From assembly GCA_024672315.1 (NCBI GenBank), contig GCA_024672315.1_4714.1: 64,000 nt of DNA. The stretch is one strand, 5' to 3'. The stretch comes from a phage. How positions within the stretch are numbered: the first letter of the stretch is position 1; each line of letters begins with the position of its first letter. The notes under the pieces are model-generated. The model saw only the letters and a program-made list of their open reading frames with translations, had not been told where the DNA came from and did no database searches. The translations under genes were made by a program, and so were the position numbers. Shown here in pieces: positions 5,224-64,000 of the stretch.

Positions 5224-5277
5224 CGGATTTCCTTATGTGTTAACGGAAGTGATTTCCATAAGAATAATCGTCCGATG

Positions 5278-8200
5278 TTAATATCCCTGGTTTGTAGCTC
5301 CTGCTGTACCTGCGAACTTCAGCCATTGCCCTTCCGGCGACAATGCGCTCCGATAATGATACACTACAATCATATTTGTCAAACCGCTATAATCTGCTTT
5401 ATGTTGCGTAGTAATACGTATCGTATAATCCAACCCGTTAGGGAAGTTGAATACTTCAATGATCGTACCGGCGAGCTGGAGAGCACCGAACCCGGTGATT
5501 GTTCCTGTGCTTCCGGCGTTCATGCCCATCGCATCGCCGAATCCAATCCAGTAGCGTTTCCGAAACGCACCTTCGCTTTTCAGATAGTTGATGAAGTCAC
5601 TAAACGACATGTTCATACCACCAGATGAAAGCGTGGATGTTTTAATCGCCATGTTAGGGATATCGCTACTGGATGCTTTATATCCTAATTTCGTATCGAT
5701 TTCTGACTTCGTATACGTAGACAGATCCGCCGCAGTTAACGTGATATTCGCCGAACCATCGAACGCTTTCCCGTTGATCGTACGCGCAGTCCGCAACTTC
5801 GTTGCCGTTGCTGCGTTTCCTGAAGTATTCTGATTACCAGCGGTGTTGACACCTGGTAGGTTAATATTAGCGCTGCCGTCAAAAGACACTCCGCCTATTG
5901 TCCGGGCCGTCTTTAACTTGGTCGCTGTCGCCGCATTTCCTGTGGTATCTTGGTTACCTGTGGTATTAACACCAGGTAAGTTGATGTTTGCTGTACCGTT
6001 GAATGATACCCCACCTATCGTTCTTGCCGTTTGAAGCCTTGTCGCTGAAGCGGCATTACCCGTCGTGTTTTGGTTACCTGTTGCATTCACACCCGGGATA
6101 CTATCCTTAGATGTGTAAATCTGTGCCCATTCCGACCATTTCGCATCGGTTGTATCGCGACGTGAACGTAAATAAGCTGGAGCGTGCGCGCCCGAGGTAC
6201 CCGACCATCCAATGAGGATTTCACCTTCACCAACCGATGAAGCACCTTTAAGATGAACAATGTTACCGTAGGCTGTAGGGTATCCGTTATTGTACACTTC
6301 ATACATCTGAATACCCGTATTGCTGCCCTGGGTCGCATTAGCTAAAGCGGTGACCCGTCCCTTGGAAGCGAGCACGTTAATGCTAAAGCTAATATCAGTT
6401 GTACCGTCAAAGGCGACCCCATTAATCCTCCGCGCCGTTTGGAGTTTCGTGGCAGTAGCCGCATTACCAGAGGTACTCTGATTACCCGCTTTGTTCACAC
6501 CCGGTAAATCAATGTTGGCGGTCCCATCAAAGGACACACCCCCTATGGTTCTCGCCGTCCGAAGTTTTGTTGCTGAACCAGCGTTTCCGGAAGTGCTTTG
6601 ATTCCCCGACGCGTTGACACCCGGTAGGTTAATGCTCGCAGAACCATCAAAAGAAACTCCGCCGATCGTGATCGGTGTTTGCAGCTTCGTGGCTGTCGCA
6701 GCATTACCCGTCGTATTCTGATTGCCAACCGCATTAACGCCTGGTAATGCGATATCGGCCGTACCATCGAACGCAACACCACCGATTTTACGGGCGGTCT
6801 GTAGCTTGGTCGCTGTCGCCGCGTTGCCGCTGGTATTTTGCGTGCCCGCTTCATTTACGCCTGGTAAATCAATGTTCGCAGTACCGTCAAAAGAAACACC
6901 CCCGATGGTTCTCGCGGTCTGCAACTTCGTTGCACTTCCTGCGTTTCCGCTGGTGCTTTGATTTCCCGCTGCATTAACACCTGGTAGACTGATGCTGGCT
7001 GAACCATCGAAACTCACACCACCGATCGTAACAGCGGTTTTCAATTTCGTGGCGGTTGCTGCGTTACCGGTTGTATTTTGGTTGCCTGTCGCATTCACGC
7101 CAGGTAATGCAATATCCGCTGTTCCGTCAAAGGCAACGCCACCGATTTTACGTGCAGTTTGTAGCTTGGTTGCACTAGCAGCGTTACCGCTGGTATTCTG
7201 GGTGCCCGCTTTGTTAACACCGGGGAGATCGATGTTAGCAGAACCATCGAAGCTGACGCCACCTATCGTTCTTGCGGTAGCGAGTTTAGCTGCTGTGGCT
7301 GCATTATTACCCACTTTCAGCCAATCATCCCATGGACCATCCTGGCCGTTCCATGATGCCGTTAAACTACGTACGTAAATATTGCCGGTACGTACAGTGT
7401 AACGTTGCGTTCCACCGAATTGCCCGGTTGGGAGCACTTCAATGTAACCTGCGGCGTTTGCTTCAGGGAAATTGTGGGCGATGTCCGCGTTCGTTGTTAC
7501 TGGTTTAGACCAAATACCCACAGACGCTTCGACTGGGCCGAAGGTATTCAGATTTGCGTCTATCGCCATAGCGCCATTAAATTTCAGGTATGTCTCTGAC
7601 GATAACCCGATCGTTTTAGCAAACGCAGCTTTATCTACGATATCACTACCGTTATTCCCTGCTTGCAACGCCGTCTTAGCTGCCTTTATGGTTTCGGTCA
7701 ATCCAAGATACTGTAAGATCGCATCAACGCTTCCTTTGTTTAGCAGATTCAGACCTGTTGACGTTACGTTAGTTAGTCCGATTTGGTTCCGTCCAGTAAA
7801 ATAAGGGAGTTTATTCGCTTCTGTTGTTAGGTTAGACCACGCAGTCAACAACGCGTTCAAAGGCTGTTTACCCGCCAACGCATTGGTTACTGTCGTTGCG
7901 AAATTAGGATCGTTCCCTAAAGCTTGAGCCAGCTCATTAAGCGTATTTAGCGCTTCTGGAGACGAGTCGATCAGCGATGCGATAGCGCGCATCACAAATT
8001 CCGTGTTGGCAATCTGTCGACTGCTATCGTTCTCTGCAGCCGTAGGCGCTGCCGGGATACCGGTGAACACGGGGCTATTAAGATCTGCCTTGAGCGCGAT
8101 GAGACGTTTAAGTGCGTCGACATCGACTTTCAGGTTTTCCCACCCGATGAGAGAACCACCACTGCTGGCATGATAACGGTTATACCAGAAGTCACCGTTA

Positions 8201-21424: not shown

Positions 21425-21502
21425 GATTACTGTCCTTTTGAAATATGTTTAGATAAGGAGGATTTACCCGGTATTAAAAGTTATTTGGTGTATGTAATGT
21501 TT

Positions 21503-22102
21503 TTACTTAGGTTCCAGTATTGGTCCGAACAACCAGAATGTCAGACGCTGGTAAACCTGTTCGATGACTGCAGCTTCTGTTTGCTCTTCTAGTGCTTTCC
21601 CTTTCTTATGTTGTATTTCTGGCGGGATGTCGCCGTTGTAAACATACCCTGTTGAGAAGTCCCACGCCAACCGTTTACCGAAAGTGGGTAAGAACACCTC
21701 TTCGAATCGGAACGCTTTCGAATTCCAATGAAGCAGCTGATCGGATTCAACATGTAAGGCTTTATTACGTTTGCTTGGCGTGTTTCCGAAGTACTGAACG
21801 ATAGCTGATTTCATAACCCGATCGGCGAAGTCTTTGGCTTCGGCCTCATCGAGGGGAGGCAGACGATGTGATAGATTCAGCTTGCGTTGTTCAACATCAA
21901 TCTTACGCATCGCTTTAATCAAATCACCAGGAACGATTTTACCCTTATGGCCTTCCTGTCGGTGTACGAAACACCCCTGGAATAGCACGCAAAGTTCTTG
22001 AGGTGCGCTACTTTCCATTCGCCCATAAGCAACAATCACCGATCGACGACGATCAATAACTTCGCGGATAAACCGCGGCTCAGTAATACTCACCACTGTC
22101 AT
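21503..22102 (-). CDS. hypothetical protein (199 aa)
   Basis: ORF. Confidence 0.5.
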   Translation of the reverse strand: MTVVSITEPRFIREVIDRRRSVIVAYGRMESSAPQELCVLFQGCFVHRQEGHKGKIVPGDLIKAMRKIDVEQRKLNLSHRLPPLDEAEAKDFADRVMKSAIVQYFGNTPSKRNKALHVESDQLLHWNSKAFRFEEVFLPTFGKRLAWDFSTGYVYNGDIPPEIQHKKGKALEEQTEAAVIEQVYQRLTFWLFGPILEPK

Positions 22103-52182: not shown

Positions 52183-54813
52183 TTACAATTCAAAATCTTC
52201 ATCGATAACACGCTGGGTAAGCACTTTGTCGCTGAAGAACTCCACCTTGCGCTGATGGTATTTACGGTGCGCTTCGATAGAAGTACATACCAGATACCAG
52301 AACGTTGGCGTCATTCCTTCAAACTTCCCTTTCAGCTGACGCAGTCGTCCCAACACCTGAATGTTACCGGTTCGTGACCCCATCGCTAGCGTCATGAACG
52401 TCATCACCAAGTCAGGAAGGTCGATACCTGTACCTGCTGATTTCACGGTTGTAACGCTAATATCGTTATCCAGCAAGACCATGAAATCTTCTTCAGCAGT
52501 ATAAGGACCGATCTCTAACTCAGGAATACGCTCACTGAGATAGTGCGACAACGACTTACACATATCAACGGTTGCACAATACACCAGCATCTTCATGCCT
52601 TCCTGATACTGGTTCATGAAACCCTTGATAATAACGGTATAGATGAAGTTAAAGTACGCGAGTTTGAGTTGCTTGTTCTTCATGATAGACTGTTCGAATA
52701 TCGTGTGTGAATAAGCTCCGCCAAACCCTTTGTATCTGACTTTATCTGTACTGCGTAGTCGATATGTTACCGCATTTACCGCAATGTATTTCTTGTATTC
52801 GCCTTTCGCATAACGGGCTTCTTTCGGATACATCAAATACAACATCTGTTCGATAAACGGATCATCGGATACCGCTGTTGCCGACAGATAAATGATTTCC
52901 GGAATATTGGCGTAACACTTGACCTTAAACAAGAAATGCAATGCTTCGTGACACTCGTCATGAATCAGCAAACCTATGCCGGTCTTTTCCCAAAACTCAG
53001 CGGGATGGAAGGCATATGGTGCAACGCAATTATTCTTCTCGTAGTCCGCAATGTAACGTTGGAACATGTTCAAGGAGAACAATGCGATTTTGAAGTCGAG
53101 CTCACCTTGTTCAACCAAGGTTTGAAACTCCAACATACTGTAACGAGGAATGTCGGGATGCGGTGGATCCTCCTTAGCGTTCCCGCGTATCTCGATAACG
53201 TCCCCTGGTTCCATCCCGAAGAAGTTCAGCAGTGAGCTTCGCCAACCTGGCATGTATCTCGGCGACAGAATGATACCCGTCCGTACACCACGTCTAAACA
53301 CGATTTCCTGTGACATCGCGGTGTTATGCGTGACGATAAAGTCTTTCACCACAAACAACGCTGAAGGATCATCGATCGTAATGCAACGTGCATCCGCAAC
53401 ACGGGAAGGTTTAATTGACAGTACACGTAGCATACTTTCGAAGTATTGTCCGTCAACAGGACAGCGTTCCAGCTTCTTCGGAAGCGTAACGATTTCATGC
53501 GGACGTTTATACCGTATCGTAACCATGTACGCTAGCCGTCCCTTATGTCTCTCCCCCTTGTAGGTGTAATACGGTTGTTTAATACGTAGACGAGCATACC
53601 CACCAATCGAACGAACCAAGTAGATAACGTCATCTGAAAGCTGTTTGCTCGAAGTACAGAAAACAATAGATCCTCCCTTCTCCACCGTTCCGTCGGTATC
53701 GATAAGACCTGCGAGTATTTCGCAACGTTGTCTGTGTGACGCCATCATGTACTGTTTCGGAACAAACTTCTCCCAGGATCGTTTACCCATCAACCCCAAC
53801 TGATCAAGCGCTAATGCCGTCTCTGACCGCCCACCGTAATTGATTAACGTTGCGGCAGGCGTCTTCGTTACCGCATAGTCGTATTTCTCGCGGTACTGTA
53901 TTTCACAGTCATCCGGAAGACGACTTAACACCTTATTCAAGATGAAATCGTCAGGAGTTGTGATTATCGGGGATGTTGATAAATGACCATCCCCTAACAG
54001 AACACCAAGCACGTACGGATCAAGCGGTAGATCTGCATCAGGAGTATGCTCAGACTCACAGTACGGAATGTAAAGTCGTTTATTGGACAGCTCCAGGATA
54101 CGAATCATCTCAAGTGTATTGATAACCCGCATGGGATAAGGATTGTTTTTGTCCCATCCCCAGTTAGGTCTCATACATGCCCAGAGATGCTCGCCGCAGG
54201 CTTCAACACGGCGACCGTCAGCAAAGACAATCTCATAGAGCTGTTTTGCTTTATGGTCGAAGATATTGGTTACCTTCGTTGGTCGGCCATTAGCAGCCGT
54301 GATGGTATCACCTATCTTCAAATCGCCTAATTGACGCCATCCGCCAGGGACTTTTACGAGCGTGGTAAGCGGATTTGCTTTACCCGACCCCGTTTGAGCG
54401 GTGTTTAGGCTCATTCTGAAGGGGGTATCCTTACCCCCGTCCATGTACTCCAACCATTCTTGCTGATCTTCACGCCATGGAAACTTCCATTTCTTTACGA
54501 ACTCCACTTCTTTACCTGGCACCGGATCGTGATAAACGATTTCCAACCACTCTTTTCGTATCCCTCGGGAAAAGATAAAATCCAAAAACGATTTCAATTG
54601 TTCACGGAGTAAGTATACCTCGCTATAATCGCTTCTCGCTGCGGCATACGTGTTTATGGTATCGGTAACCATTCTCCGTGTACGAGGGTCACGCCGTTTC
54701 CTCAGATGCAAACAACGGTCTCGAAGGTAATGGCCGATAAGATGGGCAAATCGAAGTCCGTATCCGCTCAGCCTCATGCCATGCGAGAAGACGTCGATAC
54801 GAGCTAACTTCAT
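52183..54813 (-). CDS. DExH-box SF2 helicase interrupted by an intein (876-aa precursor; ~524 aa after splicing)
   Basis: Motif I AQTGSGK|T split by insert, motif II LLIHDECHE, motif III YLSATAV, motif V TVKSAGTGIDLP, motif VI QVLGRLRQ. Confidence 0.7.
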   Translation of the reverse strand: MKLARIDVFSHGMRLSGYGLRFAHLIGHYLRDRCLHLRKRRDPRTRRMVTDTINTYAAARSDYSEVYLLREQLKSFLDFIFSRGIRKEWLEIVYHDPVPGKEVEFVKKWKFPWREDQQEWLEYMDGGKDTPFRMSLNTAQTGSGKANPLTTLVKVPGGWRQLGDLKIGDTITAANGRPTKVTNIFDHKAKQLYEIVFADGRRVEACGEHLWACMRPNWGWDKNNPYPMRVINTLEMIRILELSNKRLYIPYCESEHTPDADLPLDPYVLGVLLGDGHLSTSPIITTPDDFILNKVLSRLPDDCEIQYREKYDYAVTKTPAATLINYGGRSETALALDQLGLMGKRSWEKFVPKQYMMASHRQRCEILAGLIDTDGTVEKGGSIVFCTSSKQLSDDVIYLVRSIGGYARLRIKQPYYTYKGERHKGRLAYMVTIRYKRPHEIVTLPKKLERCPVDGQYFESMLRVLSIKPSRVADARCITIDDPSALFVVKDFIVTHNTAMSQEIVFRRGVRTGIILSPRYMPGWRSSLLNFFGMEPGDVIEIRGNAKEDPPHPDIPRYSMLEFQTLVEQGELDFKIALFSLNMFQRYIADYEKNNCVAPYAFHPAEFWEKTGIGLLIHDECHEALHFLFKVKCYANIPEIIYLSATAVSDDPFIEQMLYLMYPKEARYAKGEYKKYIAVNAVTYRLRSTDKVRYKGFGGAYSHTIFEQSIMKNKQLKLAYFNFIYTVIIKGFMNQYQEGMKMLVYCATVDMCKSLSHYLSERIPELEIGPYTAEEDFMVLLDNDISVTTVKSAGTGIDLPDLVMTFMTLAMGSRTGNIQVLGRLRQLKGKFEGMTPTFWYLVCTSIEAHRKYHQRKVEFFSDKVLTQRVIDEDFEL
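53323..54378 (-). other. intein with LAGLIDADG homing endonuclease domain (~352 aa) in helicase P-loop
   Basis: Begins ANPLTTLVKV after GSGK, ends ...FIVTHN before T; two LAGLIDADG motifs LGVLLGDGHLS and LAGLIDTDGTVEK; excision recreates AQTGSGKT. Confidence 0.65.
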
Positions 54814-56816
54814 AACGTGATTACATCCTCCGGTTTAGGTTCTTTACGCGGTAACAGCATGTAGTCGATCGGATGATCCGGCTTCATGGTTGGGATATAA
54901 CTGTTCGGGTTTTGGAACGCATCCAGCTGCTCTTGGTGAGCGAACTTCATACTCAAGGAGCGCATGTTCATGTTCTTCTTGAAGGTGCTGAAGTATCGTG
55001 TTGTTCCCTGTTTCGGCATGCGATAATCTTTCGTGTGTGGCGAACGAATCATGCTGGCGTAGAGAATAACATCGAGATGCGAAAGGTTCATTCGCAGACG
55101 CTGGGCACACAGACGATGCCAATAGTACAGCACGTTTGCAACTTCCTCCGGTGTTGCTTCGTCTTCCGAGAGGAATCCGGCACTGAAAGAACCTTTCCCG
55201 AATTTGAACTCACGTTCGATTTCTTTTGCGTACTCCATCATGTTTTTGTGGATTAACGGCATCTGGAATAACGTACGTGAATTGTCCCAATGTTTCAAGT
55301 CGAAAATCACAATCCCGTCAGACGTCACTTCCCAGCTATGGCGTTTGAGATAACGGATAAACGCTTTACTCGGTACAACAGGACGGCCGCAGAAATCGAA
55401 ATTGACTTTGAGTTTACGATAGCTTTCATCTTTCCTGTCGTAAATCTCCATATCGCAAAGCGTCATGTTAAACAGACGTTGCGGTATCAACGAACTGATT
55501 TCTTCCGCTTCCGCTACGTCGTACAACATGTTCGCAAGACCTAACTTCATCTTAATCAGCACATGTTTACCTTTCAGCTCACGTGCGAGTTTGATGTCGT
55601 TCATGTTCTGGCTGTAGCGAAGGATATGTTGATATTCCGGTGGGATTGGTGCTGTGGATACCGTTGACGAACCATCGTGGTGTTTGGTAGAAAGAATGTT
55701 CTGCGTTACCTGTTGCGAACAGGTACGCGCTGCACCGTCGCCGACATTATCAGTCAATGCGAAGTTATGACTTAATTCACCGTAACACGTCGTACATACC
55801 CCAGCAGGATCGGGATGATGACAATAGTTAACGGAGCGCATACGCACTGTGGTGCCGATCAATTCTTTCATGTGTGGCTGTATCGCTACCAACGAACCGT
55901 CATCACGAATAATGAATCGACCGTGGAAGCCACGCAGGTCAGTCTCATCACGGATTGGCATCGGGATGGTCTCTTTACTACCACAATCACCAGGATGGAG
56001 TCGTTGTACAACCGCTGTCGCTATCTGAAGTTCACGACCGAAATATTCAGACTTTTTAATCTGCTCTTTGTTGAACAGCAACGATTTCGCCGCAGAACGA
56101 CTTTCTTTCAAGCTGTCAGGAAGAGAGATCAAACCGGCTGCATACGACCGCATTACCGGATCGCGGAATATCTCGGAGTTAATATCGGTCAAGAATCCAC
56201 GCATCCCAATACACTGTAGCACCTGCCCAATCGAAACGTGTTCGGTTCTTACCGCACGTGCGATAGGGTTTGCATGTAACGTTTTATCGGTGCTCAGTAC
56301 CTTTGTCAGTTTCTTGTATGCGCTTTCGATACCTTCGCGGGTGGGTTCCGCTTCAGCGATGATTTTCTTAACTTCGGGGTGTACGGTAATCTGATAAAAA
56401 TCGTCCGCGCAAATCGTTGTTACGTATTCCTCCAACGCATACGTAAAGAAGTTATACACATTGTTAAACATATCGAACAGTGCTTTCCAGAGAACCTCAC
56501 GATTCTCTTGTGGATAAGCATACATGCATTGACGATACGCGGCGCTTTGCAACGCAACCGATGAACCCGCTGTGAACTTGCGTTTATCAACCAGGTTCTC
56601 TTTTGTCAATGGTGTCTCAGGATACATGCGATGCACAGACCAGTGCATGTAACTAAAGAAAATGCGTCGTGCACGCAATTCATGAACGCCATCGTCCATC
56701 TCGATATACACACGGTCATTAGGTTGTGCCCACTCGAACACCTCATCAACCGGCCAATGCATAAGCTCGCGTGCCCTCACACGACGTTTCGTGGTGGTTG
56801 TCTGTGTTGTAATCAT
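54810..56816 (-). CDS. multisubunit RNA polymerase beta'-like subunit fragment (668 aa)
   Basis: RSVNYCHHPDPAGVCTTCYG matches universal beta' segment (E. coli RSVVSCDTDFGVCAHCYG); upstream HPGDCGSKETIPMP matches EDDCGTHEGIMMTP; trigger-loop-like segment follows. Confidence 0.6.
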   Translation of the reverse strand: MITTQTTTTKRRVRARELMHWPVDEVFEWAQPNDRVYIEMDDGVHELRARRIFFSYMHWSVHRMYPETPLTKENLVDKRKFTAGSSVALQSAAYRQCMYAYPQENREVLWKALFDMFNNVYNFFTYALEEYVTTICADDFYQITVHPEVKKIIAEAEPTREGIESAYKKLTKVLSTDKTLHANPIARAVRTEHVSIGQVLQCIGMRGFLTDINSEIFRDPVMRSYAAGLISLPDSLKESRSAAKSLLFNKEQIKKSEYFGRELQIATAVVQRLHPGDCGSKETIPMPIRDETDLRGFHGRFIIRDDGSLVAIQPHMKELIGTTVRMRSVNYCHHPDPAGVCTTCYGELSHNFALTDNVGDGAARTCSQQVTQNILSTKHHDGSSTVSTAPIPPEYQHILRYSQNMNDIKLARELKGKHVLIKMKLGLANMLYDVAEAEEISSLIPQRLFNMTLCDMEIYDRKDESYRKLKVNFDFCGRPVVPSKAFIRYLKRHSWEVTSDGIVIFDLKHWDNSRTLFQMPLIHKNMMEYAKEIEREFKFGKGSFSAGFLSEDEATPEEVANVLYYWHRLCAQRLRMNLSHLDVILYASMIRSPHTKDYRMPKQGTTRYFSTFKKNMNMRSLSMKFAHQEQLDAFQNPNSYIPTMKPDHPIDYMLLPRKEPKPEDVITL

Positions 56817-56961
56817 TATTACTTTCCGATTTAAATGGTTTTATCATACGGTTTACCAATTCCGTTGGAATTTACTATCGCCATGATAGCATCGGGAATC
56901 CCTTCTCTTAGGTTATGTAGGTGTTAATATATCTCCACTGCCGGAGTAAAAGTCGGCAACA

Positions 56962-57447
56962 TTACCCGGCTTTCTGTCGTAGAGCGTACGGATCCATAGC
57001 GTCTGACATATCCGAAACAACCGTGAGAATGAAGCCCTTTATCTGTCTCACTTCGGTCACACGCAATCCTTTATCGTTACGATATACGTTTTCTTCACCA
57101 ACCAACTTTGGTCGGATAACATAAACGCCATCAACAAACGGGAATGTCGAATACGGATAAACACCAATAGAAATGATGTTTGGATGATCGCCTCGAAGGT
57201 CACGTCCGAACTTATCGACTCGACCATAAATCGTTCCATCCGCACCCTCCACTTCAATGAGGTCGTTACGAATATCCTGAAATAGCTGTTCTAAGGTGTT
57301 GGCAGGGTACGTATATGCGACGCCTAACGCTGGATCCTCGATCGTTTTGACATTGAATCCGTTAAGCCAAACAATCCGTTCATTCGCCCATGTTTCTTCA
57401 TATACCGTTAATCCATCGCCGTATATGTTGGCGTGTGCTATCTCCAT
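56962..57447 (-). CDS. hypothetical protein (161 aa)
   Basis: ORF. Confidence 0.5.
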   Translation of the reverse strand: MEIAHANIYGDGLTVYEETWANERIVWLNGFNVKTIEDPALGVAYTYPANTLEQLFQDIRNDLIEVEGADGTIYGRVDKFGRDLRGDHPNIISIGVYPYSTFPFVDGVYVIRPKLVGEENVYRNDKGLRVTEVRQIKGFILTVVSDMSDAMDPYALRQKAG

Positions 57448-57561
57448 AATCTCATTTCCTCTTCTACGTAGAAATAGATGACATGTTGGATATACGTTGC
57501 CTTTGCATATATTGCTTTATTTCCGTCAGAAATAACGGAAAATAAAAACAACAACATAGTT

Positions 57562-57591
57562 CCCTCCCACCTCCACATGGGAGAGGGAGGG
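57562..57591 (-). terminator. GC-rich hairpin
   Basis: ccctccc-N16-gggaggg; followed on minus strand by AACTATGTTG. Confidence 0.45.
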
Positions 57592-57604
57592 CTATACGTG
57601 TTTA

Positions 57605-57967
57605 TTACTCGATGCTGTCTTCTTCCGTATCTTCCTCTTCAGAACCATCGAATGTTTTCATTGTGGCGGTGGTATCCCAGTTAGCTGCGTAATCAGCCAT
57701 CGCTTCGCGCAGTGCTTCTTCACCAGCATCACCAGCCAGGTCAAGTACAACCAAACCCTGTGCGACGTTTTGAGCGACGGTATCAATAACGGTTGCATCT
57801 TCTTCAAAACTACGTACGGGTTCAATGGTACCTACATCAACAGCGTAGTTCGTGGTTGCTGTAAACACGGCGACTTGTAGCGCATTGCTATCTTCATCAT
57901 GCAGTGCTGCCTCAATACCGATTGGACGAGCCAGTTCTTGCAGTGTTAATTTGCGAATTAAGTTCAT
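57605..57967 (-). CDS. small acidic protein (120 aa), member of a 3-gene paralog set
   Basis: Acidic C-terminus DGSEEEDTEEDSIE; N-terminal NLIRKLTLQELAR resembles NNLILQDLAR of neighbour. Confidence 0.5.
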   Translation of the reverse strand: MNLIRKLTLQELARPIGIEAALHDEDSNALQVAVFTATTNYAVDVGTIEPVRSFEEDATVIDTVAQNVAQGLVVLDLAGDAGEEALREAMADYAANWDTTATMKTFDGSEEEDTEEDSIE

Positions 57968-58000
57968 TATGTTTTTCCTCAGGTGAATGTTAGCAATCGT

Positions 58001-58348
58001 TTAAAACTTTAAAACTTTTTCGATACGATGGTTGACGAATTCATTGAACGACTCTTCGGCTTGTTCGATAATTTCATCAACATCGATATCTAATTGTTGG
58101 GGTTGGATAACATGCTCTTTCATGGTTTCCAGCCAGTATTCGGCTTTAACCATAACGTTAGCGACGTGTTCGACCTGGCTGCGTATGTCGACGATCTGGC
58201 AATCAGGATTGTTAATATCGATGATGTGTCCGTGGTGTTTGATAAACCCTAACTTATTCGACGCCCTTACCGCATCGCGGGCAAGGTCTTGCAAGATTAA
58301 ATTATTGACGTAGTTCACTGCTATGGAACGATTTTCTTTATCACTCAT
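58001..58348 (-). CDS. small protein (115 aa), paralog set member
   Basis: ORF; N-terminal similarity to 57605-57967. Confidence 0.5.
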   Translation of the reverse strand: MSDKENRSIAVNYVNNLILQDLARDAVRASNKLGFIKHHGHIIDINNPDCQIVDIRSQVEHVANVMVKAEYWLETMKEHVIQPQQLDIDVDEIIEQAEESFNEFVNHRIEKVLKF

Positions 58349-58427
58349 ACCAGGGATCCTCTTTTAAGTGTTCACATTCTAGTGTTAAGCAGTTAAAATA
58401 AACCGTCCCTTTAATCAGCATAAACAT

Positions 58428-58456
58428 CCTCCTCCCACCACATGGGCAGGAGGAGG
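58428..58456 (-). terminator. hairpin
   Basis: cctcctcc-N13-ggaggagg; followed on minus strand by ATGTTTATGCTG. Confidence 0.5.
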
Positions 58457-58467
58457 CGTAATATGCA

Positions 58468-58878
58468 TCAGAAAGGAGGACGATCTTTAAATTCTAGCAA
58501 TGTATCTTCGAAGCAAGCGATAAGTTCAGACTGCAATTCGGTACGGCCTTGTTCACCGAAGAGTTCCAGCAACATTAACCCCCGAGCGGTCTTCGTAGCA
58601 ACCTCTTCGCAGATGCGGAGATCGCGAACTTCATCATCGCCGACATCTTTACGTAACTGCGCTGCAATGGGCTTAAGATTGCCGTTTTCATCGTGTTCGT
58701 CACGAAATGCATCATAAGCCGCATCGATGTTCGCGATCCGTGTCAATCCTTCAGAATCCCGCCAGTCTCGATATAATCCAAGCAGACGGTTATGATTCTT
58801 CGTTTTGACGTTCGGTGCTGGAAGGTTGCGCAACAGATGTGGTGTAATCATTGCTATCACGCTATCCGAATGATCCAT
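58468..58878 (-). CDS. small protein (136 aa), probable paralog set member
   Basis: C-terminal ATKTARGLMLLELFGEQGRTEL resembles AQNVAQGLVVLDLAGDAGEEAL of 57605-57967. Confidence 0.45.
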   Translation of the reverse strand: MDHSDSVIAMITPHLLRNLPAPNVKTKNHNRLLGLYRDWRDSEGLTRIANIDAAYDAFRDEHDENGNLKPIAAQLRKDVGDDEVRDLRICEEVATKTARGLMLLELFGEQGRTELQSELIACFEDTLLEFKDRPPF

Positions 58879-58889
58879 CGTATACCTCG

Positions 58890-61058
58890 TTAGCTTTCGC
58901 AGTCATCTGCGTCGATGATTTGTCCGCCAGCAACGTTCAGCTGATGATACAGGATCCTCAACGCACGGTTGCCGCCAATGGGATACTTCTCGAAGTTGGT
59001 CGCAATAGGAATCGCTGACGGCTTATCGGTCGCATAGATGCTTTCAGTGATGCTATCCACCTGTTTTGGATTGTTCGCATAGTCCATAAAGACGCTTGCG
59101 AACCATCCGCCAGCAAAGGCGGTAACTTCGCGATGTTCAGATTCACCACAGTAACGAGTCGGTTGCTCTTTACCAGGGGAACTGTATTTATCGCTATTAC
59201 TGAGTTTCGACGGTAATCCGTGCGCTTGCAGTTTAGGAATACCCACAGCTGACCAGTCGTTCGCCGTCTTCTCCAACATCATGATGTACGTGTCACCGAT
59301 CGCAATATCGTTCTTGGTTGTCCGCCATTGCCCGGAACGCCCACGATACCGTACAGGACCTTTCTTCAACGGGAACTCACGAATCAGATTCTCCATACGT
59401 TCTGAACCTGCTGCGATACTGTCCGTCGGGATATAAACTTCCGTACCGTGGCGTTGTACGTACCGTAAATGATCCCATTTATCCTCATCCGTGATACAGT
59501 ATTTTTCAACAACCTGTTCCACGAACTCAGGACTGACGATATAGTAGTAGCGCATCAGTGTGTTCCAAGCGGTCTCCAGATCGCCTGCATCCATCACCGG
59601 TTTCAGTTCACGCATGATCTGATCACCAACACCGTTGATGTATGGCGCATTAACACGACTCAAACTCATCCTTTTGATTACCGTGCTATCGTCGAACATA
59701 AAGTCCGCAACATTACCCCATTGGTCAACCGGCATTTCATCGTCTTCCATGATGTCGGTTACGACGAATTTATCACCCGCCATACCGGTGAATTTAAACC
59801 CGATACCTGGAACAACGTCGTACGTGTAGGTGATGGTCACACGCCAATCATCGAGATTCTCTTTGCGGTAATCGCGGGTTGGTAACACATGACGTAGCTG
59901 TCCGTTCGGATTGCGGATATCGATACCGTGTTCAGCATCAGCCAGGTTCAACCACCACATCACCGTTTGATGATGACGTATCGGCGTACCAACGCGTTCA
60001 CGTTCGTACTTACGAACAGCATCCTGAATTCGGGTGTAAAGCAAACCGATTGCGTTTTCATATTTCAGGAATTGACGATACGGAGGACGCATCTTCTCTT
60101 CCATCATAATCGCACGCTCGCGGGCTTGACGTCCAGAACGACGATGTCGATCGCTGACAACATCGATATCCGTTACACGCGCATTCGGTTCAGCGTAAGT
60201 GAGATCATCGTAAACATAATCCACACGCTGAAGGTTACATGTCATCATGTCAACAACGCTAAGAATAGGATCGATTTCGCGTGTTGCTGCAAGTAACCCA
60301 TCTTTACGAATACGCTCACCGTTCTCGGGTATTGCTTGATATACCTCGTCATCACCGTAGAGATTGATTGGGTATCGTGATTTACCTGACGTGATTGTTC
60401 GCTTCTCAATACCTGTGCTGGTGAAATGCTTCAATACACCACGACGGGCAACACCACCATCCTCGATACACTGATAGAAGCTACCGAAACACACTTTGCA
60501 ATCGCGACCGTAACCCCACTCGCGTGTTTCTTGATTGATCGCTGGGCTTTCCATCAAACGAGAATATCGCGGTACGATCTGGCCTCGACGGAGGGAATGG
60601 AACAAGTTGGTTGGTCGAAAACGGAAACCGTACTGCTGATGCATGATGTGATGCTCAGGCACTTCAAGCAAGCGTAGCTCGTGACGGTTACCATCCTCTT
60701 GGTTTTCATACAGCACGTAATGCATCGTGTTTGTTTTGATGCTGTTTGCTGTATGCCCCGGTTGGAAACGTGGGATGATATCTATGATGCGAGATTCGAC
60801 TGGAAACTCTACTGACCACGTGTTCTGTCCGTACTGGTATTCGATCCCCGTCGTCAGTCGGGACGGTTTCGCATCTTTGATAACCAACGCTTGGCTAAGA
60901 TGTCCACCAAACATCGCAGCGCGCTGTGCTGAGTTATAATGCAGTAGCCCGTTAAGTCCAGTCCCTACGCCAGTATACTCCTGTTTAATGGGAATGATTT
61001 TACCTTCAGCGATTGCCTGCTTCACAGATTCATAAAGAGGTTTTTCTTTATAATGCAT
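58890..61058 (-). CDS. probable multisubunit RNA polymerase beta-like subunit fragment (~722 aa)
   Basis: AGDKF...IMEDDEMPVDQWGNVADFMFDDSTVIKRM resembles beta GDKMAGRHGNKG...[25 protein letters not shown] but lacks RHGNKG; later RYCGESEHREVTAFAGG resembles RFGEMEVWALEAYGAA; start set to ATG 61058 with AGGAAG RBS. Confidence 0.45.
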   Translation of the reverse strand: MHYKEKPLYESVKQAIAEGKIIPIKQEYTGVGTGLNGLLHYNSAQRAAMFGGHLSQALVIKDAKPSRLTTGIEYQYGQNTWSVEFPVESRIIDIIPRFQPGHTANSIKTNTMHYVLYENQEDGNRHELRLLEVPEHHIMHQQYGFRFRPTNLFHSLRRGQIVPRYSRLMESPAINQETREWGYGRDCKVCFGSFYQCIEDGGVARRGVLKHFTSTGIEKRTITSGKSRYPINLYGDDEVYQAIPENGERIRKDGLLAATREIDPILSVVDMMTCNLQRVDYVYDDLTYAEPNARVTDIDVVSDRHRRSGRQARERAIMMEEKMRPPYRQFLKYENAIGLLYTRIQDAVRKYERERVGTPIRHHQTVMWWLNLADAEHGIDIRNPNGQLRHVLPTRDYRKENLDDWRVTITYTYDVVPGIGFKFTGMAGDKFVVTDIMEDDEMPVDQWGNVADFMFDDSTVIKRMSLSRVNAPYINGVGDQIMRELKPVMDAGDLETAWNTLMRYYYIVSPEFVEQVVEKYCITDEDKWDHLRYVQRHGTEVYIPTDSIAAGSERMENLIREFPLKKGPVRYRGRSGQWRTTKNDIAIGDTYIMMLEKTANDWSAVGIPKLQAHGLPSKLSNSDKYSSPGKEQPTRYCGESEHREVTAFAGGWFASVFMDYANNPKQVDSITESIYATDKPSAIPIATNFEKYPIGGNRALRILYHQLNVAGGQIIDADDCES

Positions 61059-61089
61059 AGGACTTCCTATTATCGAATTGAGGTACGTC

Positions 61090-61443
61090 ATGTCTAACAC
61101 GCCCCTGAACGACTTTCTTAAGACAAACCCCGATGACCTCATCCACGATCTTGATTTCAGGAACGTTGTTGAGATGCATCTGGAATATTTCAAAAATGCC
61201 GGACTGGTCTCTACGATAGACATACCACCCGAACGCGCCTACGAATTCGATGGTAACTTTTATGGATTGTGTCGTGTTCTGCTCGGTGAGGGCAGTGAAC
61301 CAATGCACTGGATAACCATGAGACTCAATGGTTATCGTGACCCTACGGAATACACCGCCGATGTTCTAACCATGAAGATTGTCGATACAAGCGCAATCAA
61401 CACATTAAAACAACAGTACCGCACAATCCACTACAGCGCTTAA
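61090..61443 (+). CDS. hypothetical protein (117 aa) on opposite strand
   Basis: ATG 61090 with GAGGT RBS; ORF ends 5 nt before hairpin 61449-61477; preferred over antisense track ORF 61048-61308. Confidence 0.4.
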   Translation: MSNTPLNDFLKTNPDDLIHDLDFRNVVEMHLEYFKNAGLVSTIDIPPERAYEFDGNFYGLCRVLLGEGSEPMHWITMRLNGYRDPTEYTADVLTMKIVDTSAINTLKQQYRTIHYSA

Positions 61444-61448
61444 GATAA

Positions 61449-61477
61449 CCCTCCCACAGCGTAAAGCGTAGGGAGGG
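61449..61477. terminator. hairpin at convergent junction
   Basis: ccctccc-N15-gggaggg followed on + strand by CATTTATGCCG. Confidence 0.5.
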
Positions 61478-61508: not shown

Positions 61509-62789
61509 TCAGAAACGATTTACAGTACGTCCTGTCCACGCGCTCAGGATGTTGTTACGTTCCATCTCAGCACGACGACGTAAACCGTTTGGCGACTGCG
61601 GTGCTTGCGGCATCCCCCATCCAGCAGGTTGCATGCCCATGCCCGGCCAAGCAGCGTTATTGAACATCGTACCGTTACGTTCAGCAACACGGTTCATCAA
61701 CGCATCAAACGTGCTATTACCTGCCGGTTGGTTACCACCACTTTCCCACTGATTAGGTTGGACAGGTGCGGTTTTACCTAACAGGTTATCGATCACACTG
61801 CCTGTTGAAGCAGGACGCGGTTGCATACCTTCATGTGCAGCTGCTGATGGATTCGGCTTAACCGTCGGCTGTGGACGACTGTTCAGCGTTACACCCATGT
61901 TGTATTTCGCTGGCGGAATTTGACCACGATGTTGATTAATCGGTTCAAAATCCTCGACCCAGGTAACATCACAATAACCGTTCTCTTTACCGTCGTACTT
62001 ATCACCAAACAGTTTGATGAGATGGTTCAGCGGTTCCATCAGCTTAGCGAAGCTGTGGATAAGACAATCGAAATACGGGGCATGAGGGTCGCTTGACCCA
62101 GCGTTGTACGTTTCACTTACCTCACCCGCGTGCGGGATAACGTACTCAACCAGGTTTCTCAGCATGTTAAGATCTTTCTTGGAAATCTCAACACCGCACC
62201 AGTACGTTTTCTTATCTTTCGTGCTGATATGTTCTTCTTCCATGAACGGGAAAGTAACGACCGCAACACGGGTCATCTTCTTACCCATGTAGGTTGCACC
62301 AGTACGACGAAGATAGATTTTGGACAGCGTATACGGCGTGTCACGTTTCAGCCAAACGGTGACCAGTTTGCCCAGGGTCGTTAATGTTTTATCGCTGGCG
62401 TCCGCAAGGATGTTGAAGAACTCTTTTTGCTTCGGTCCGAAACGTTTTGCTTCTTTAGGATTGATTGCGGTTTCAACCATCCAAATCAGCATGGAGCATA
62501 GCGTGGCGTTAAAACGAACAACCATCGCACGACGCAGGAACTGAAGTACTTCCGATTCGCCGTTCATCACGTCTTCACTTAGCGGATGGAACAGCACGCG
62601 TTCAGCCAGCTGATTTCCGGTACGAACTTCGGAAACCGGCATCAGCAACGGCATGCTTTCCACGGTAGCGGCAACCGCAACAACTTTACCATCCCCATCC
62701 GTAAAACGATATTCTAATTCGTGGGCGTCATTCTCAAAATAGTTAACGCTCTGTAGTGCTTTGCGATAAGCTTCGATAAGCTTCGACAT
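61509..62789 (-). CDS. hypothetical protein (426 aa) with Gly/Pro/Gln/Met-rich low-complexity C-terminal region
   Basis: ORF with AAGGAAAT RBS; C-terminus GMQPRPASTG...AAWPGMGMQPAGWGMPQAPQSP. Confidence 0.55.
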   Translation of the reverse strand: MSKLIEAYRKALQSVNYFENDAHELEYRFTDGDGKVVAVAATVESMPLLMPVSEVRTGNQLAERVLFHPLSEDVMNGESEVLQFLRRAMVVRFNATLCSMLIWMVETAINPKEAKRFGPKQKEFFNILADASDKTLTTLGKLVTVWLKRDTPYTLSKIYLRRTGATYMGKKMTRVAVVTFPFMEEEHISTKDKKTYWCGVEISKKDLNMLRNLVEYVIPHAGEVSETYNAGSSDPHAPYFDCLIHSFAKLMEPLNHLIKLFGDKYDGKENGYCDVTWVEDFEPINQHRGQIPPAKYNMGVTLNSRPQPTVKPNPSAAAHEGMQPRPASTGSVIDNLLGKTAPVQPNQWESGGNQPAGNSTFDALMNRVAERNGTMFNNAAWPGMGMQPAGWGMPQAPQSPNGLRRRAEMERNNILSAWTGRTVNRF

Positions 62790-62844: not shown

Positions 62845-63996
62845 TTAGAAGTTGCCTTTGGTAGTTACCGCATCCACCAGGTTAAACAAATCAACGCTCA
62901 GCTTATACACCTCCTGCTGACTACGGTTGAGCAGCGGGCTGTATGCAGATGGGTTGATGTTCGGCATGGTGTACGGAATCGGTGCAGAACCGTCAACGCT
63001 GATCTTGAACTGGCTATCCAGGAACAGGTTAATCGCGCCGCTCACCATAACCGCGTTCGGGTTGTTGCCCAACATGGAGGGTAGGATATTGGTAATCATG
63101 TCAGAACGCATTTGTTCAGCAGCACGGTTACAATCGTATCCTTTAATGAACGGTACAGCGTCGGTAACCGCAACAGCCCACTGACCAGGCATGATACCGA
63201 GTTCTGGGTGACCGTGGTTGTCAGCAATGAAACGGAACGACTCCAACATGCGATAGGTCATCGCAGCAGGCATCATTGCAGCAAGCGATGAACAATACAG
63301 CGTTGGATAATCGATCACGTCCCAGCTCTGGCTATCGGTCGGCATCCAACCAAACTCGGTGGTTGCTGACGTACCGCGACGAGCTTCCACATACGGGAAT
63401 AACGTTAAGACATCACGGATATGTTCACCGAACATCCGTTTCATGTCTGCCCAACTCAGGCTACCGCTGAAAGCGAATCCTTCATCACGCATAATCGCAC
63501 CGAATACCGGATGCGCAACCAACGGTTCTTCACGAACAGCTTGAGCGGCTTCCACGTAAATATCCTCGTTCTCCGCGCTACCTGGATGAGACCCGCTTTC
63601 GTACGTCTGACGAATAGCCCCAACATTATCGAAGGCTTTTCTTAGATAGATGGTTGGGATGTTCGTATCAGCACTAGCGGGTTTGATTTTCTCTGTTGCG
63701 AAACACATTGCTGCTTCCACACCACGGAAAACCGGTTCCGGCTGTGGTGGATAGGATGTACGATGAACCACGTCAGCGTAGGCGGGATCGAACTGCTGCA
63801 TCACGTTCTGCATCGCTGGGTCCATGAACTGGTTATCAAAACCGCCATTGCCTACCCAACGTGCTGTTGATGCATAAGTCAGCGTATCCTGAACACGAGT
63901 ACTGAACTGAACATCGCGATTAACAGGGTCGTATGCACCAGTCAGCAGGTTCGTTGCATCCATCGGGGTTGCACGAACGATTTGCTTACCGAACAT
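62845..63996 (-). CDS. hypothetical protein (at least 383 aa; start may lie beyond window end)
   Basis: ORF with ATG at 63994-63996; upstream codon in frame is not a stop, so N-terminus may extend past position 64000. Confidence 0.45.
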   Translation of the reverse strand: MFGKQIVRATPMDATNLLTGAYDPVNRDVQFSTRVQDTLTYASTARWVGNGGFDNQFMDPAMQNVMQQFDPAYADVVHRTSYPPQPEPVFRGVEAAMCFATEKIKPASADTNIPTIYLRKAFDNVGAIRQTYESGSHPGSAENEDIYVEAAQAVREEPLVAHPVFGAIMRDEGFAFSGSLSWADMKRMFGEHIRDVLTLFPYVEARRGTSATTEFGWMPTDSQSWDVIDYPTLYCSSLAAMMPAAMTYRMLESFRFIADNHGHPELGIMPGQWAVAVTDAVPFIKGYDCNRAAEQMRSDMITNILPSMLGNNPNAVMVSGAINLFLDSQFKISVDGSAPIPYTMPNINPSAYSPLLNRSQQEVYKLSVDLFNLVDAVTTKGNF

Positions 63997-64000
63997 ATCC

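Follow-up and report, generated by a model that had tools for sequence, protein, structure and literature searches.

Two polymerase genes and their neighbours

On the minus strand of the window—the 64,000-nucleotide stretch of phage DNA (GenBank assembly GCA_024672315.1) analysed here—lie two large genes that almost certainly encode two subunits, beta'-C and beta-C, of a non-virion multisubunit RNA polymerase (nvRNAP). The phage is a nucleus-forming jumbo phage of E. coli that resembles Goslar (Chimalliviridae). The beta'-C gene (54810–56816, 668 aa) is the ortholog of Goslar gp165 and phiKZ gp74; the beta-C gene (58890–61058, 722 aa, uninterrupted) is the ortholog of Goslar gp171 and phiKZ gp71–73. 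A sequence-only reading of the window had picked out both open reading frames (ORFs), leaving their strand unstated. Both are real, and the motifs quoted from them (RSVNYCHHPDPAGVCTTCYG, GMAGDKFVVTDIMEDDEMPVDQWGNVADF and TRYCGESEHREVTAFAGG) are present.

The longest frame at the beta-C gene (58890–61223) would specify a protein of 777 aa. We rejected this reading and prefer the start at 61058 because the annotated start of Goslar gp171 corresponds to it, because an AGGAAG ribosome-binding site sits 5 nt upstream, because homology to phiKZ gp71 starts only downstream of 61058, and because the upstream extension would overlap a conserved plus-strand gene (61078–61443) that matches phrog_3455 (9.5e-22).

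The stop of beta'-C is overlapped by the start of an SF2 helicase gene (52183–54813, minus strand), the homolog by BLASTP of phiKZ gp75 and Goslar gp164. On the far side of beta-C, on the same strand, is a homolog of phiKZ gp70 and Goslar gp173 (61509–62789, 426 aa), a protein with no assigned function (BLASTP to phiKZ gp70, 2.5e-23; phrog_3520, 1.5e-63) and no sequence match in the PDB; its counterparts in PhiPA3, gp63 and gp64, have been reported to associate with the nucleus (10.1101/2023.09.22.559000). Next comes a homolog of phiKZ gp69 and Goslar gp174 (62845–64000, minus strand), whose gene runs past the window end. The C-terminal 383 aa of its product are 100% identical to residues 146–528 of Goslar gp174, which matches phiKZ gp69 at 6e-15. 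By BLASTP and tblastn, the phiKZ order gp69–gp70–gp71/73–gp74–gp75 is reproduced in the window, in the same orientation. In Goslar the conserved block reaches gp68 (Goslar gp175), and it has been described for PhiPA3, too (10.1101/2023.09.22.559000). Neither the gp70-like nor the gp69-like ORF, for which the PDB sequence search gave nothing useful, is the gp68-like subunit; synteny puts the gene of that subunit just past the window end.

In phiKZ the beta-C and beta'-C genes are adjacent (gp73/gp74), with no gene between them, whereas in the present phage they are parted by a 2-kb, variable accessory island of four small ORFs (161, 120, 115 and 136 aa; 56962–58878, minus strand), none with a match in Pfam or PHROG. 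A relative, L008, whose beta'-C is 68% identical, has 13 genes at this point; of the four small ORFs it shares those of 136 and 161 aa but not those of 120 and 115 aa. No tRNAs were found in the window. A scan for sigma-70 promoters returned 21 sites where 20.6 were expected, which is chance level; the scan is uninformative because such phages do not use the host polymerase.

Non-virion and virion polymerases

Each of the two proteins corresponds along its whole length, as an ortholog, to a phiKZ nvRNAP chain of solved structure, with a similarity well outside the range of chance. In a PHROG search, beta'-C matches phrog_3015 at 4.7e-170 over aa 11–658, and beta-C matches phrog_3295 at 2e-180; against the PDB, phmmer aligns beta'-C with PHIKZ074 (7ogp_D) at 1.3e-86 over residues 11–654, and beta-C with 7ogp_C at 1e-85 over nearly its full length. 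Profiles built from the two families reach further. That of beta'-C detects phiKZ gp74 at ~5e-193, AR9 at 6e-37 and bacterial beta' at ~1e-15 to 1e-18 (~3e-15 for residues 702–944 of the E. coli subunit); that of beta-C detects phiKZ at ~1e-227, AR9 at 2e-69 and E. coli beta at 9e-27, and extends to Rpb2, RPA2 and archaeal subunit B as well. AlphaFold2 models tell the same story. For beta'-C (pLDDT 88) the best Foldseek match is 8que_D (1e-42, TM 0.77), and for beta-C (pLDDT 80) it is 8que_C (1e-54, TM 0.70); in both rankings the phiKZ chain is followed by AR9 nvRNAP and then by the bacterial subunit. The structural comparison proposed along with the sequence-only reading matches both models to phiKZ, AR9 and bacterial polymerases.

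Comparison of single sequences gives less. Residues 928–1241 of E. coli RpoB match beta-C at 4e-7 in BLASTP, the sole E. coli-to-beta-C match in pairwise BLAST. The Pfam model PF00562 (RNA_pol_Rpb2_6) is matched by 25 of the 27 members of the beta-C family, at best with an E-value of 2e-14, and the window's own protein scores 16.5 bits (E 0.005), below the cut-off of 23.4. On its own beta'-C has no Pfam match, and the RNA polymerase models in Pfam are matched by none of its 66 family members, so the case for homology to cellular beta' is made by comparing profiles and structures.

That these genes belong to a phage-encoded multisubunit polymerase had been proposed from the sequence, and it holds; the type can now be given more sharply, as the non-virion and not the virion enzyme. 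Chimalliviruses encode two paralogous split polymerases, and beta'-C weakly and partially matches a second PHROG that is annotated as an RNA polymerase subunit (phrog_2962, 3.1e-10, residues 272–385), as might be expected if both proteins were subunits of the virion-packaged polymerase (vRNAP), the enzyme injected along with the DNA for early transcription. We think this very improbable. It is the phiKZ non-virion chains gp74 and gp71–73 that the two proteins match best and over their full length, and the order of the genes is that of the phiKZ nvRNAP block, gp68–gp75. Mass spectrometry of Goslar virions names gp78, gp196, gp205, gp207 and gp210 as vRNAP; of these our family profiles barely detect gp207 (E 0.007), and the other loaded vRNAP subunits go undetected. 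The ortholog in Erwinia phage RAY, moreover, is annotated as 'nvRNAP beta' subunit 2', and GFP fusions of it are located within the phage nucleus.

Catalytic elements of beta-C and beta'-C

The catalytic residues map one-to-one, and the phiKZ structure paper (PMC8287921) names the same ones. On the beta side, the catalytic barrel with its pair of conserved lysines comes from beta-C, as do an acidic Glu–Asp pair and the C-terminal clamp/assembly region. Nearest the N-terminus is the equivalent of beta region D (aa 42–57, NSAQRAAMFGGHLSQA; 60888–60935, minus strand), which aligns with E. coli beta 674–689 (DDANRALMGANMQRQA). Residues S43, R46, M49 and Q56 are invariant in the beta-C family, and the last three pair with R678, M681 and Q688 of E. 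coli beta. The acidic pair (E199, D200) follows in CIEDGG (60453–60470, minus strand), aligned to N811-F-E813-D814-S of E. coli beta; D200 does not vary in the family, and E199 reaches at least 90% conservation.

The barrel motif itself, GFKFTGMAGDKFVV...EDDEMPVDQWGNVADF (59700–59801, minus strand), is a diverged form of GDKMAGRHGNKGVI...EDMPYDENGTPVDI. Its first lysine, K422, is invariant in the family and corresponds to K1065 of E. coli and K386 of phiKZ; its second, K430, corresponds to K1073 and K394, in agreement with the published phiKZ assignment (PMC8287921). The earlier proposal that beta-C lacks the RHGNKG core was mistaken, for the GDK that it noted, within the stretch found at aa 425–453 (GMAGDKFVVTDIMEDDEMPVDQWGNVADF), is that core in diverged form: G425-M-A-G-D-K430 aligns with G1068-R-H-G-N-K1073. 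The loop is unusually diverged nonetheless, reading MAGDKF in the Goslar lineage whereas the family consensus is xHGGKG and phiKZ has HGGKG. The last element, TRYCGESEHREVTAFAGG (aa 634–651; 59106–59159, minus strand), is collinear with G1266–A1283 of E. coli beta (GGQRFGEMEVWALEAYGA). The GDK block and this later GE.E block had been proposed to follow the order of the C-terminal half of beta. Sequence by itself gives a weak match for the later block, whose alignment is to E. coli beta 1270–1297 (-2.4 as profile domain score; E 0.053 against the single target), and the block falls inside the full-length Foldseek match to beta.

It might be supposed that ORFs like these are decaying, non-functional remnants of a polymerase—'fragments', as they had been called—since each accounts for only one half of its cellular counterpart, RHGNKG has diverged, and the window's beta-C falls under the Pfam threshold. 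The chance of this seems to us slight indeed. The phiKZ and AR9 enzymes, which are active and whose structures are solved, are natively split too; both proteins align with their orthologs over the whole length, free of frameshifts and stops; and every catalytic or structural residue that is invariant in the families is intact. Compared with Goslar, one gene has 69 synonymous and 2 non-synonymous substitutions, and the other has 64 and none (133 and 2 for the pair), such that the 54810–56816 protein is 99.7% identical to gp165 and the 58890–61058 protein 100% identical to gp171. 'Fragments' is a misleading term: each gene encodes a whole subunit of a predicted five-subunit enzyme and is under strong constraint.

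From beta'-C come the bridge helix, a zinc site of four cysteines, and the trigger loop, in which one histidine is invariant. The equivalent of beta' region F (aa 183–211, NPIARAV...QVLQCIGMRGFLTD; 56184–56270, minus strand) is defined by a residue alignment to E. coli beta' in which N183 pairs with N720, Q198 with Q736, Q201 with Q739, R206 with R744, and G207 with G745; N183 and G207 are invariant among the 66 homologs. The bridge helix (aa 238–273; 55998–56105, minus strand) aligns both with the E. coli bridge-helix segment (R240=H777, K244=K781, Y258=Y795, R261=R798) and with L242–Y279 of phiKZ gp74, the bridge helix of that protein (PMC8287921), and the alignment stops just short of D277=D813. 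The AlphaFold2 model has a single long helix here, at 232–267. The DCG segment, in HPGDCGSKE (aa 276–280), had been placed near the bridge helix from the sequence; its cysteine, C278, aligns with C814 of E. coli.

C278, in GDCGS, is also the first of the four zinc-site cysteines (55779–55991, minus strand). The other three, C332, C341 and C344, lie in RSVNYCHHPDPAGVCTTCYG (aa 327–346; 55779–55838), which occurs exactly as it had been quoted. Together they correspond to C814, C888, C895 and C898 of E. coli beta' and to C288, C341, C350 and C353 of phiKZ gp74, which form a conserved zinc-binding domain in the phiKZ structure (PMC8287921), and each of the four is present in all 66 homologs. Beyond them lies the trigger loop, first helix and tip (aa 358–384, ...ILSTKHHDGSS; 55665–55745, minus strand), identified by alignment to E. 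coli and from the model. L375-S-T-K-H379 aligns with M932-R-T-F-H936, and none of the 66 homologs departs from K378 or H379; in the model a helix (358–375) is followed by a low-confidence tip at 382–384, as a mobile trigger loop would lead one to expect. Cys-x2-Cys is a common short motif, and Pfam is blank for the single sequence, but that the cluster is an unrelated zinc ribbon, resembling beta' by coincidence of motif, is scarcely credible when the four cysteines match those of beta' in order and spacing, when the bridge helix lies on one side of them and the trigger loop on the other in one 240-residue profile alignment, when the model superposes on phiKZ gp74 and bacterial beta', and when the same four cysteines are assigned to the conserved zinc-binding domain of phiKZ (PMC8287921). 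Trigger loop and beta-side barrel lysines are present, and the cysteine cluster is the beta' zinc site. The sequence-only reading had proposed beta and beta' genes of a phiKZ-like jumbo phage, split and highly diverged; on this, profiles, solved-structure searches, AlphaFold with Foldseek, residue mapping, synteny and the literature all agree, and none of the data speak against the assignment.

Partner subunits, proposed working and known relatives

As had been claimed, the window does not include the N-terminal halves. The NADFDGD motif is absent from beta'-C, whose alignment is confined to E. coli beta' 702–944; tblastn with phiKZ gp55 and gp68 finds no match in the window, and with E. coli RpoB and RpoC it finds zero matches at E<=0.01. 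The remaining large or unannotated ORFs of the window match structural proteins or nothing in PHROG, and all large ORFs are accounted for. The Goslar homologs are elsewhere: NADFDGD is in a separate Goslar gene ~11 kb past the window end; beta'-N (gp247) is 31% identical to phiKZ gp55; beta-N (gp039) matches PHIKZ123 (7ogp_E) at 1e-40; and the gp68-like protein (gp175) matches phiKZ gp68 at 3e-32. From the 96%-identical genome of Goslar we infer that the present phage has these three partner genes, too.

If the phiKZ enzyme and the biology of Goslar are a guide, beta'-C and beta-C would join three partners whose genes lie in other parts of the genome: beta-N; beta'-N, with the DFDGD loop that binds Mg; and, in the place of sigma, a fifth subunit resembling gp68. 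The resulting enzyme would have five subunits and be without alpha or omega. Its genes would be read early by the injected virion polymerase, and it would then be imported into the phage nucleus, there to transcribe middle and late genes without the host RNA polymerase. For the phiKZ enzyme both DNA-dependent RNA synthesis without host subunits and resistance to rifampicin have been shown (PMC8287921). Assembly, promoter use, rifampicin resistance and nuclear import in the present phage are extrapolated from phiKZ, PhiPA3 and RAY.

The changes to the active-site loop in the Goslar lineage (GRHGNKG to GMAGDKF; HGGKG in the family) might alter catalysis or nucleotide handling, and some of the island ORFs might be lineage-specific accessory factors of nvRNAP; we offer this as conjecture, and an unlikely one. 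The strongest candidate for an accessory factor is the 136-aa ORF (58468–58878), which follows close behind beta-C and is conserved in the relative whose beta'-C is 68% identical.

The closest solved relative is phiKZ nvRNAP (PDB 7OGP, 7OGR, 8QUE, 9RJS), whose gp74 and gp71–73 are full-length orthologs at ~28–30% identity, with the same split points, bridge helix, trigger loop, zinc cysteines, two lysines and gp68–gp75 block. In phiKZ the beta-C gene is broken between gp71 and gp73, inside the HGGKG motif, by an insert with the gp72 ORF, whereas the present gene is continuous. We take the phiKZ insert to be a self-splicing intron; the phiKZ record annotates none. With phiKZ in mind an intron was considered for the present beta-C as well, and Rfam gave no match above threshold in the whole window; the ORF runs on without a break.

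The nvRNAP of Bacillus phage AR9 (PDB 7S00, 7S01, 7UM0, 7UM1) is also split in beta and beta' and is also without alpha and omega, but it is much more distant, with 13–18% identity in structural alignments. For beta'-C and beta-C, respectively, the AR9 matches are 1e-13 and 3e-17 by phmmer, 6e-37 and 2e-69 by profile, and 2e-20 and 4e-41 by Foldseek. Membership of the AR9/PBS2 type was considered and rejected, since every search placed AR9 far behind phiKZ, in second position. The AR9 genome contains uracil; the phage has a different promoter-recognition subunit and is not known to build a chimallin nucleus.

With bacterial RpoC and RpoB the phage proteins share catalytic architecture at an identity of only ~13–15%: beta'-C matches E. 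coli beta' 702–944, and beta-C matches E. coli beta 659–709, 771–836 and 993–1241. Unlike the bacterial subunits, each phage subunit is split over two genes far apart in the genome, and none of the lineage-specific insertions that E. coli carries (SI3, for example) is present. Also unlike the bacterial enzyme, alpha and omega are missing, and a gp68-type fifth subunit stands in the place of sigma (PMC8287921). The phage proteins are homologs of beta' and beta, and not members of the cellular families: NADFDGD and the bridge helix and trigger loop do not occur in one polypeptide.

Nearest of all is Goslar (vB_EcoM_Goslar, NC_048170; Goslarvirus, Chimalliviridae). The window, DNA of a Goslar-like E. 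coli chimallivirus, is ~96% (95.8%) identical to Goslar 93207–158707, with the same order of genes and the same neighbours. Judged by its sequence, the gene pair is already known, being annotated and published in Goslar, where RefSeq (NC_048170) labels gp165 and gp171 'RNA polymerase beta subunit', and the finding is an ordinary one. Split, host-independent RNA polymerases inside the phage nucleus are established biology, with phiKZ structures solved and Goslar orthologs annotated. What is gained is an identification—the window is that of a Goslar-type nucleus-forming jumbo phage, with two essential transcription genes pinned down—and, of limited practical value, a residue-level map of the catalytic elements in the Goslar lineage along with the correction on RHGNKG. 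Differences from Goslar amount to ~4% of the DNA, nearly all at synonymous sites, and several indels elsewhere in the window. One further difference lies in the helicase gene, in whose product Pfam detects a LAGLIDADG domain: in the present phage it carries a 352-aa intein (53323–54378) that alignment shows to be absent from Goslar gp164.

Identity and state of the gene pair

Two minus-strand genes, at 54810–56816 (668 aa) and 58890–61058 (722 aa), were picked out by a sequence-only reading as β′-like and β-like fragments of a phage multisubunit RNA polymerase. Both are present, and so are all of the strings quoted for them: GDCGS, RSVNYCHHPDPAGVCTTCYG, GDK…EDDEMP…GNVADF and RYCGESE…AFAGG. We refer to the proteins as β′-C and β-C. 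The profile and structure searches that the reading proposed, against RpoB/RpoC and the phiKZ and AR9 polymerases, have been run and all go in its favor; the observation is confirmed and its β′/β interpretation is supported, with corrections. The proteins belong to phrog_3015 (β′-C, 4.7e-170) and phrog_3295 (β-C, 2e-180). Among PDB sequences, phmmer matches β′-C (residues 11–654) to gp74 of the phiKZ non-virion RNA polymerase, hereafter nvRNAP (7OGP chain D, 1.3e-86), and β-C to gp71-73 (chain C, 1e-85); AR9 nvRNAP follows at 1e-13 and 3e-17, and bacterial β′ and β at about 1e-4 and 0.006. Family profiles of 66 β′-C and 27 β-C homologs reach phiKZ at 5e-193 and 1e-227, AR9 at 6e-37 and 2e-69, and the bacterial subunits at 1e-15 to 1e-18 (E. 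coli β′ 702–944) and 9e-27 (E. coli β 993–1241). The β-C profile has two further collinear matches, to E. coli β 659–709 and 771–836, and extends to the second-largest subunits of eukaryotes, archaea and poxviruses. In Foldseek searches, the AlphaFold models (mean pLDDT 88 for β′-C and 80 for β-C) match the phiKZ transcribing complex (8que_D, 1e-42, TM 0.77; 8que_C, 1e-54, TM 0.70), AR9 (2e-20; 4e-41) and the bacterial subunits (about 1e-11; about 1e-28).

The longest open frame of the second gene, 58890–61223 (777 aa), was dropped in favor of the start at 61058, as in the sequence-only reading. In Goslar the ortholog is annotated as starting at the position that corresponds to 61058, an AGGAAG ribosome-binding site lies 5 nt upstream of it, similarity to phiKZ gp71 is confined to the sequence downstream, and the extension would overlap a conserved plus-strand gene at 61078–61443 (phrog_3455, 9.5e-22).

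Across 54810–61223, identity to Escherichia phage vB_EcoM_Goslar (NC_048170, 149525–155930) is 95.8%. Goslar belongs to the Chimalliviridae and is a jumbo phage that forms a nucleus. The gene pair is published and annotated in this well-studied family, and so is already known; RefSeq labels Goslar gp165 and gp171 alike, as 'RNA polymerase beta subunit'. β′-C is 99.7% identical to gp165, and β-C 100% identical to gp171. Nearly all of the DNA differences from Goslar are synonymous—69 synonymous to 2 non-synonymous in the β′-C gene, 64 to 0 in the β-C gene—so that strong purifying selection acts on both; if 'fragments' is taken to mean decay, the word does not hold. Goslar-type phages are represented in the phage collection by the Goslar genome alone, and the nearest phage homologs apart from it are only about 32% identical. 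Phage records with a homolog number 311; most are of phiKZ-like phages, among them phages of Pseudomonas, Erwinia, Salmonella and Vibrio, and the most distant belong to AR9-like phages of Bacillus and Staphylococcus. The 90%-identity clusters that hold the two proteins, P0001 and P0089, have 206 and 163 members, mostly from public sequencing-run assemblies; Goslar-type phage sequence thus occurs in many runs.

Anatomy of the two proteins

For the residue map, the family profiles served as the common frame onto which the window proteins, the phiKZ subunits and E. coli RpoB/RpoC were aligned. β′-C and β-C are shown here to supply half of the active-center machinery, β′-C contributing the bridge helix, trigger loop and zinc site, and β-C the lysine-bearing catalytic barrel and the ED pair. 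In β′-C, N183, R206 and G207 of region F correspond to E. coli N720, R744 and G745; aa 238–273 to the E. coli bridge-helix segment (R240=H777 to R261=R798) and phiKZ L242–Y279; the zinc-site cysteines C278, C332, C341 and C344 to E. coli C814, C888, C895 and C898 and phiKZ C288, C341, C350 and C353; and L375-S-T-K-H379 of the trigger loop to E. coli M932-R-T-F-H936. Every one of the 66 homologs keeps the four cysteines, K378 and H379. These same β′-C elements are named in the phiKZ structure paper (PMC8287921).

In β-C, R46, M49 and Q56 correspond to E. coli β R678, M681 and Q688, the ED pair E199 and D200 to E813 and D814, and the two lysines K422 and K430 to K1065 and K1073 (phiKZ K386 and K394). 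G425-M-A-G-D-K430-F aligns with E. coli G1068-R-H-G-N-K1073-G. The 'GDK' of the sequence-only reading is therefore the RHGNKG motif itself, diverged, and the claim that this core is missing was wrong; here most of the family has HGGKG and the Goslar lineage MAGDKF. The C-terminal GESE…AFAGG block is collinear with E. coli 'GEMEVWALEAYGA', a match for which support from sequence alone is weak.

A non-virion enzyme and its partners

Chimalliviruses each have two paralogous split polymerases. On best matches, gene order and profile contrast, the pair is assigned to the non-virion enzyme. Both proteins have phiKZ non-virion chains as their best matches over the full length, and the window reproduces the phiKZ nvRNAP gene order: a gp69-like C-terminus (62845–63996), a gp70-like gene (61509–62789), β-C, β′-C and a gp75-like helicase (52183–54813), whose start overlaps the β′-C stop. 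Goslar gp175, the gp68-like fifth subunit, is next in the block, just past the window end. Goslar gp207, one of the virion polymerase chains, is scarcely detected by the family profiles (E 0.007).

The N-terminal halves lie outside the window, as predicted: tblastn with phiKZ gp55 and gp68 finds nothing within it, and all of its large ORFs are otherwise accounted for. In Goslar, β′-N is gp247 (31% identity to phiKZ gp55), adjoining the chimallin gene about 11 kb beyond the window end, and β-N is gp039 (7ogp_E PHIKZ123, 1e-40), located close to the major capsid gene. By analogy with phiKZ and Goslar, β′-C and β-C would join β′-N, bearing the Mg-binding DFDGD, β-N and the gp68-like, sigma-positioned subunit in one enzyme that has no alpha or omega. 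Both genes would be transcribed early by the injected virion polymerase; the enzyme would be imported into the phage nucleus, and would then transcribe the middle and late genes without host polymerase.

The β-C gene is uninterrupted in the window, whereas in phiKZ an insert that carries gp72 splits it at the HGGKG motif. Similar breaks at this motif occur in the metagenomic homologs P0113 and P0114. The annotated Goslar gp247 CDS (168235–170910; 3236–5911 of L005, a Goslar sequence outside the window) ends …GYNADFSFFN, inside the catalytic NADFDGD. After it come an annotated group I intron and a gene for an HNH endonuclease. Polymerase motifs of the highest conservation seem to be the targets of mobile insertions.

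Surroundings of the genes

Four small minus-strand ORFs (161, 120, 115 and 136 aa) lie between β-C and β′-C, at 56962–58878, none with a family in Pfam or PHROG. This interval is empty in phiKZ, but holds 13 genes in L008, a relative from a public sequencing run with a 68% identical β′-C. Of the four, only the 136-aa ORF, directly after β-C, and the 161-aa ORF are also present in L008, which marks this interval as a variable accessory island. Across the entire window, neither Rfam nor tRNA scanning gave a hit. Two GC-rich minus-strand hairpins are possible transcript ends: one at 58428–58456 (12-bp stem), just past the 136-aa ORF, and one at 61449–61477 (CCCTCCC…GGGAGGG), between the gp70-like gene and the plus-strand gene 61078–61443, whose ends converge there.

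The entire window is collinear with Goslar 93207–158707 at roughly 95–96% identity, except for one tail-fiber segment that is more divergent (85%) and a few indels. Divergence is sharp in the tail-fiber/tail-fiber-assembly region, 5260–6763: 5260–5888 has no megablast match to Goslar, and the remainder, up to 6763, is 85% identical, which suggests a swapped host-recognition module. Three deletions relative to Goslar, of roughly 390, 860 and 710 bp, at about 21456–21503, 23553 and 26378, have taken out or shortened its gp108, gp112/gp113 and gp120 regions.

The SF2 helicase gene downstream of β′-C carries a 352-aa in-frame insertion (A146…N497; 53323–54378, minus strand) within its Walker A motif (GSGK|T); neither Goslar gp164 nor L008 has it. 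The insertion runs from an initial Ala to …VTHN|T and includes a LAGLIDADG endonuclease domain. Its W (CGEHLW), C (ARCITID) and T (VTHN) stand at the positions characteristic of class 3 'WCT' inteins, of which it may be one. In other jumbo phages, inteins 40–44% identical to it are found in genes that bear a RAD2/SF2 or ATP-dependent helicase annotation, and in some that bear a terminase annotation.
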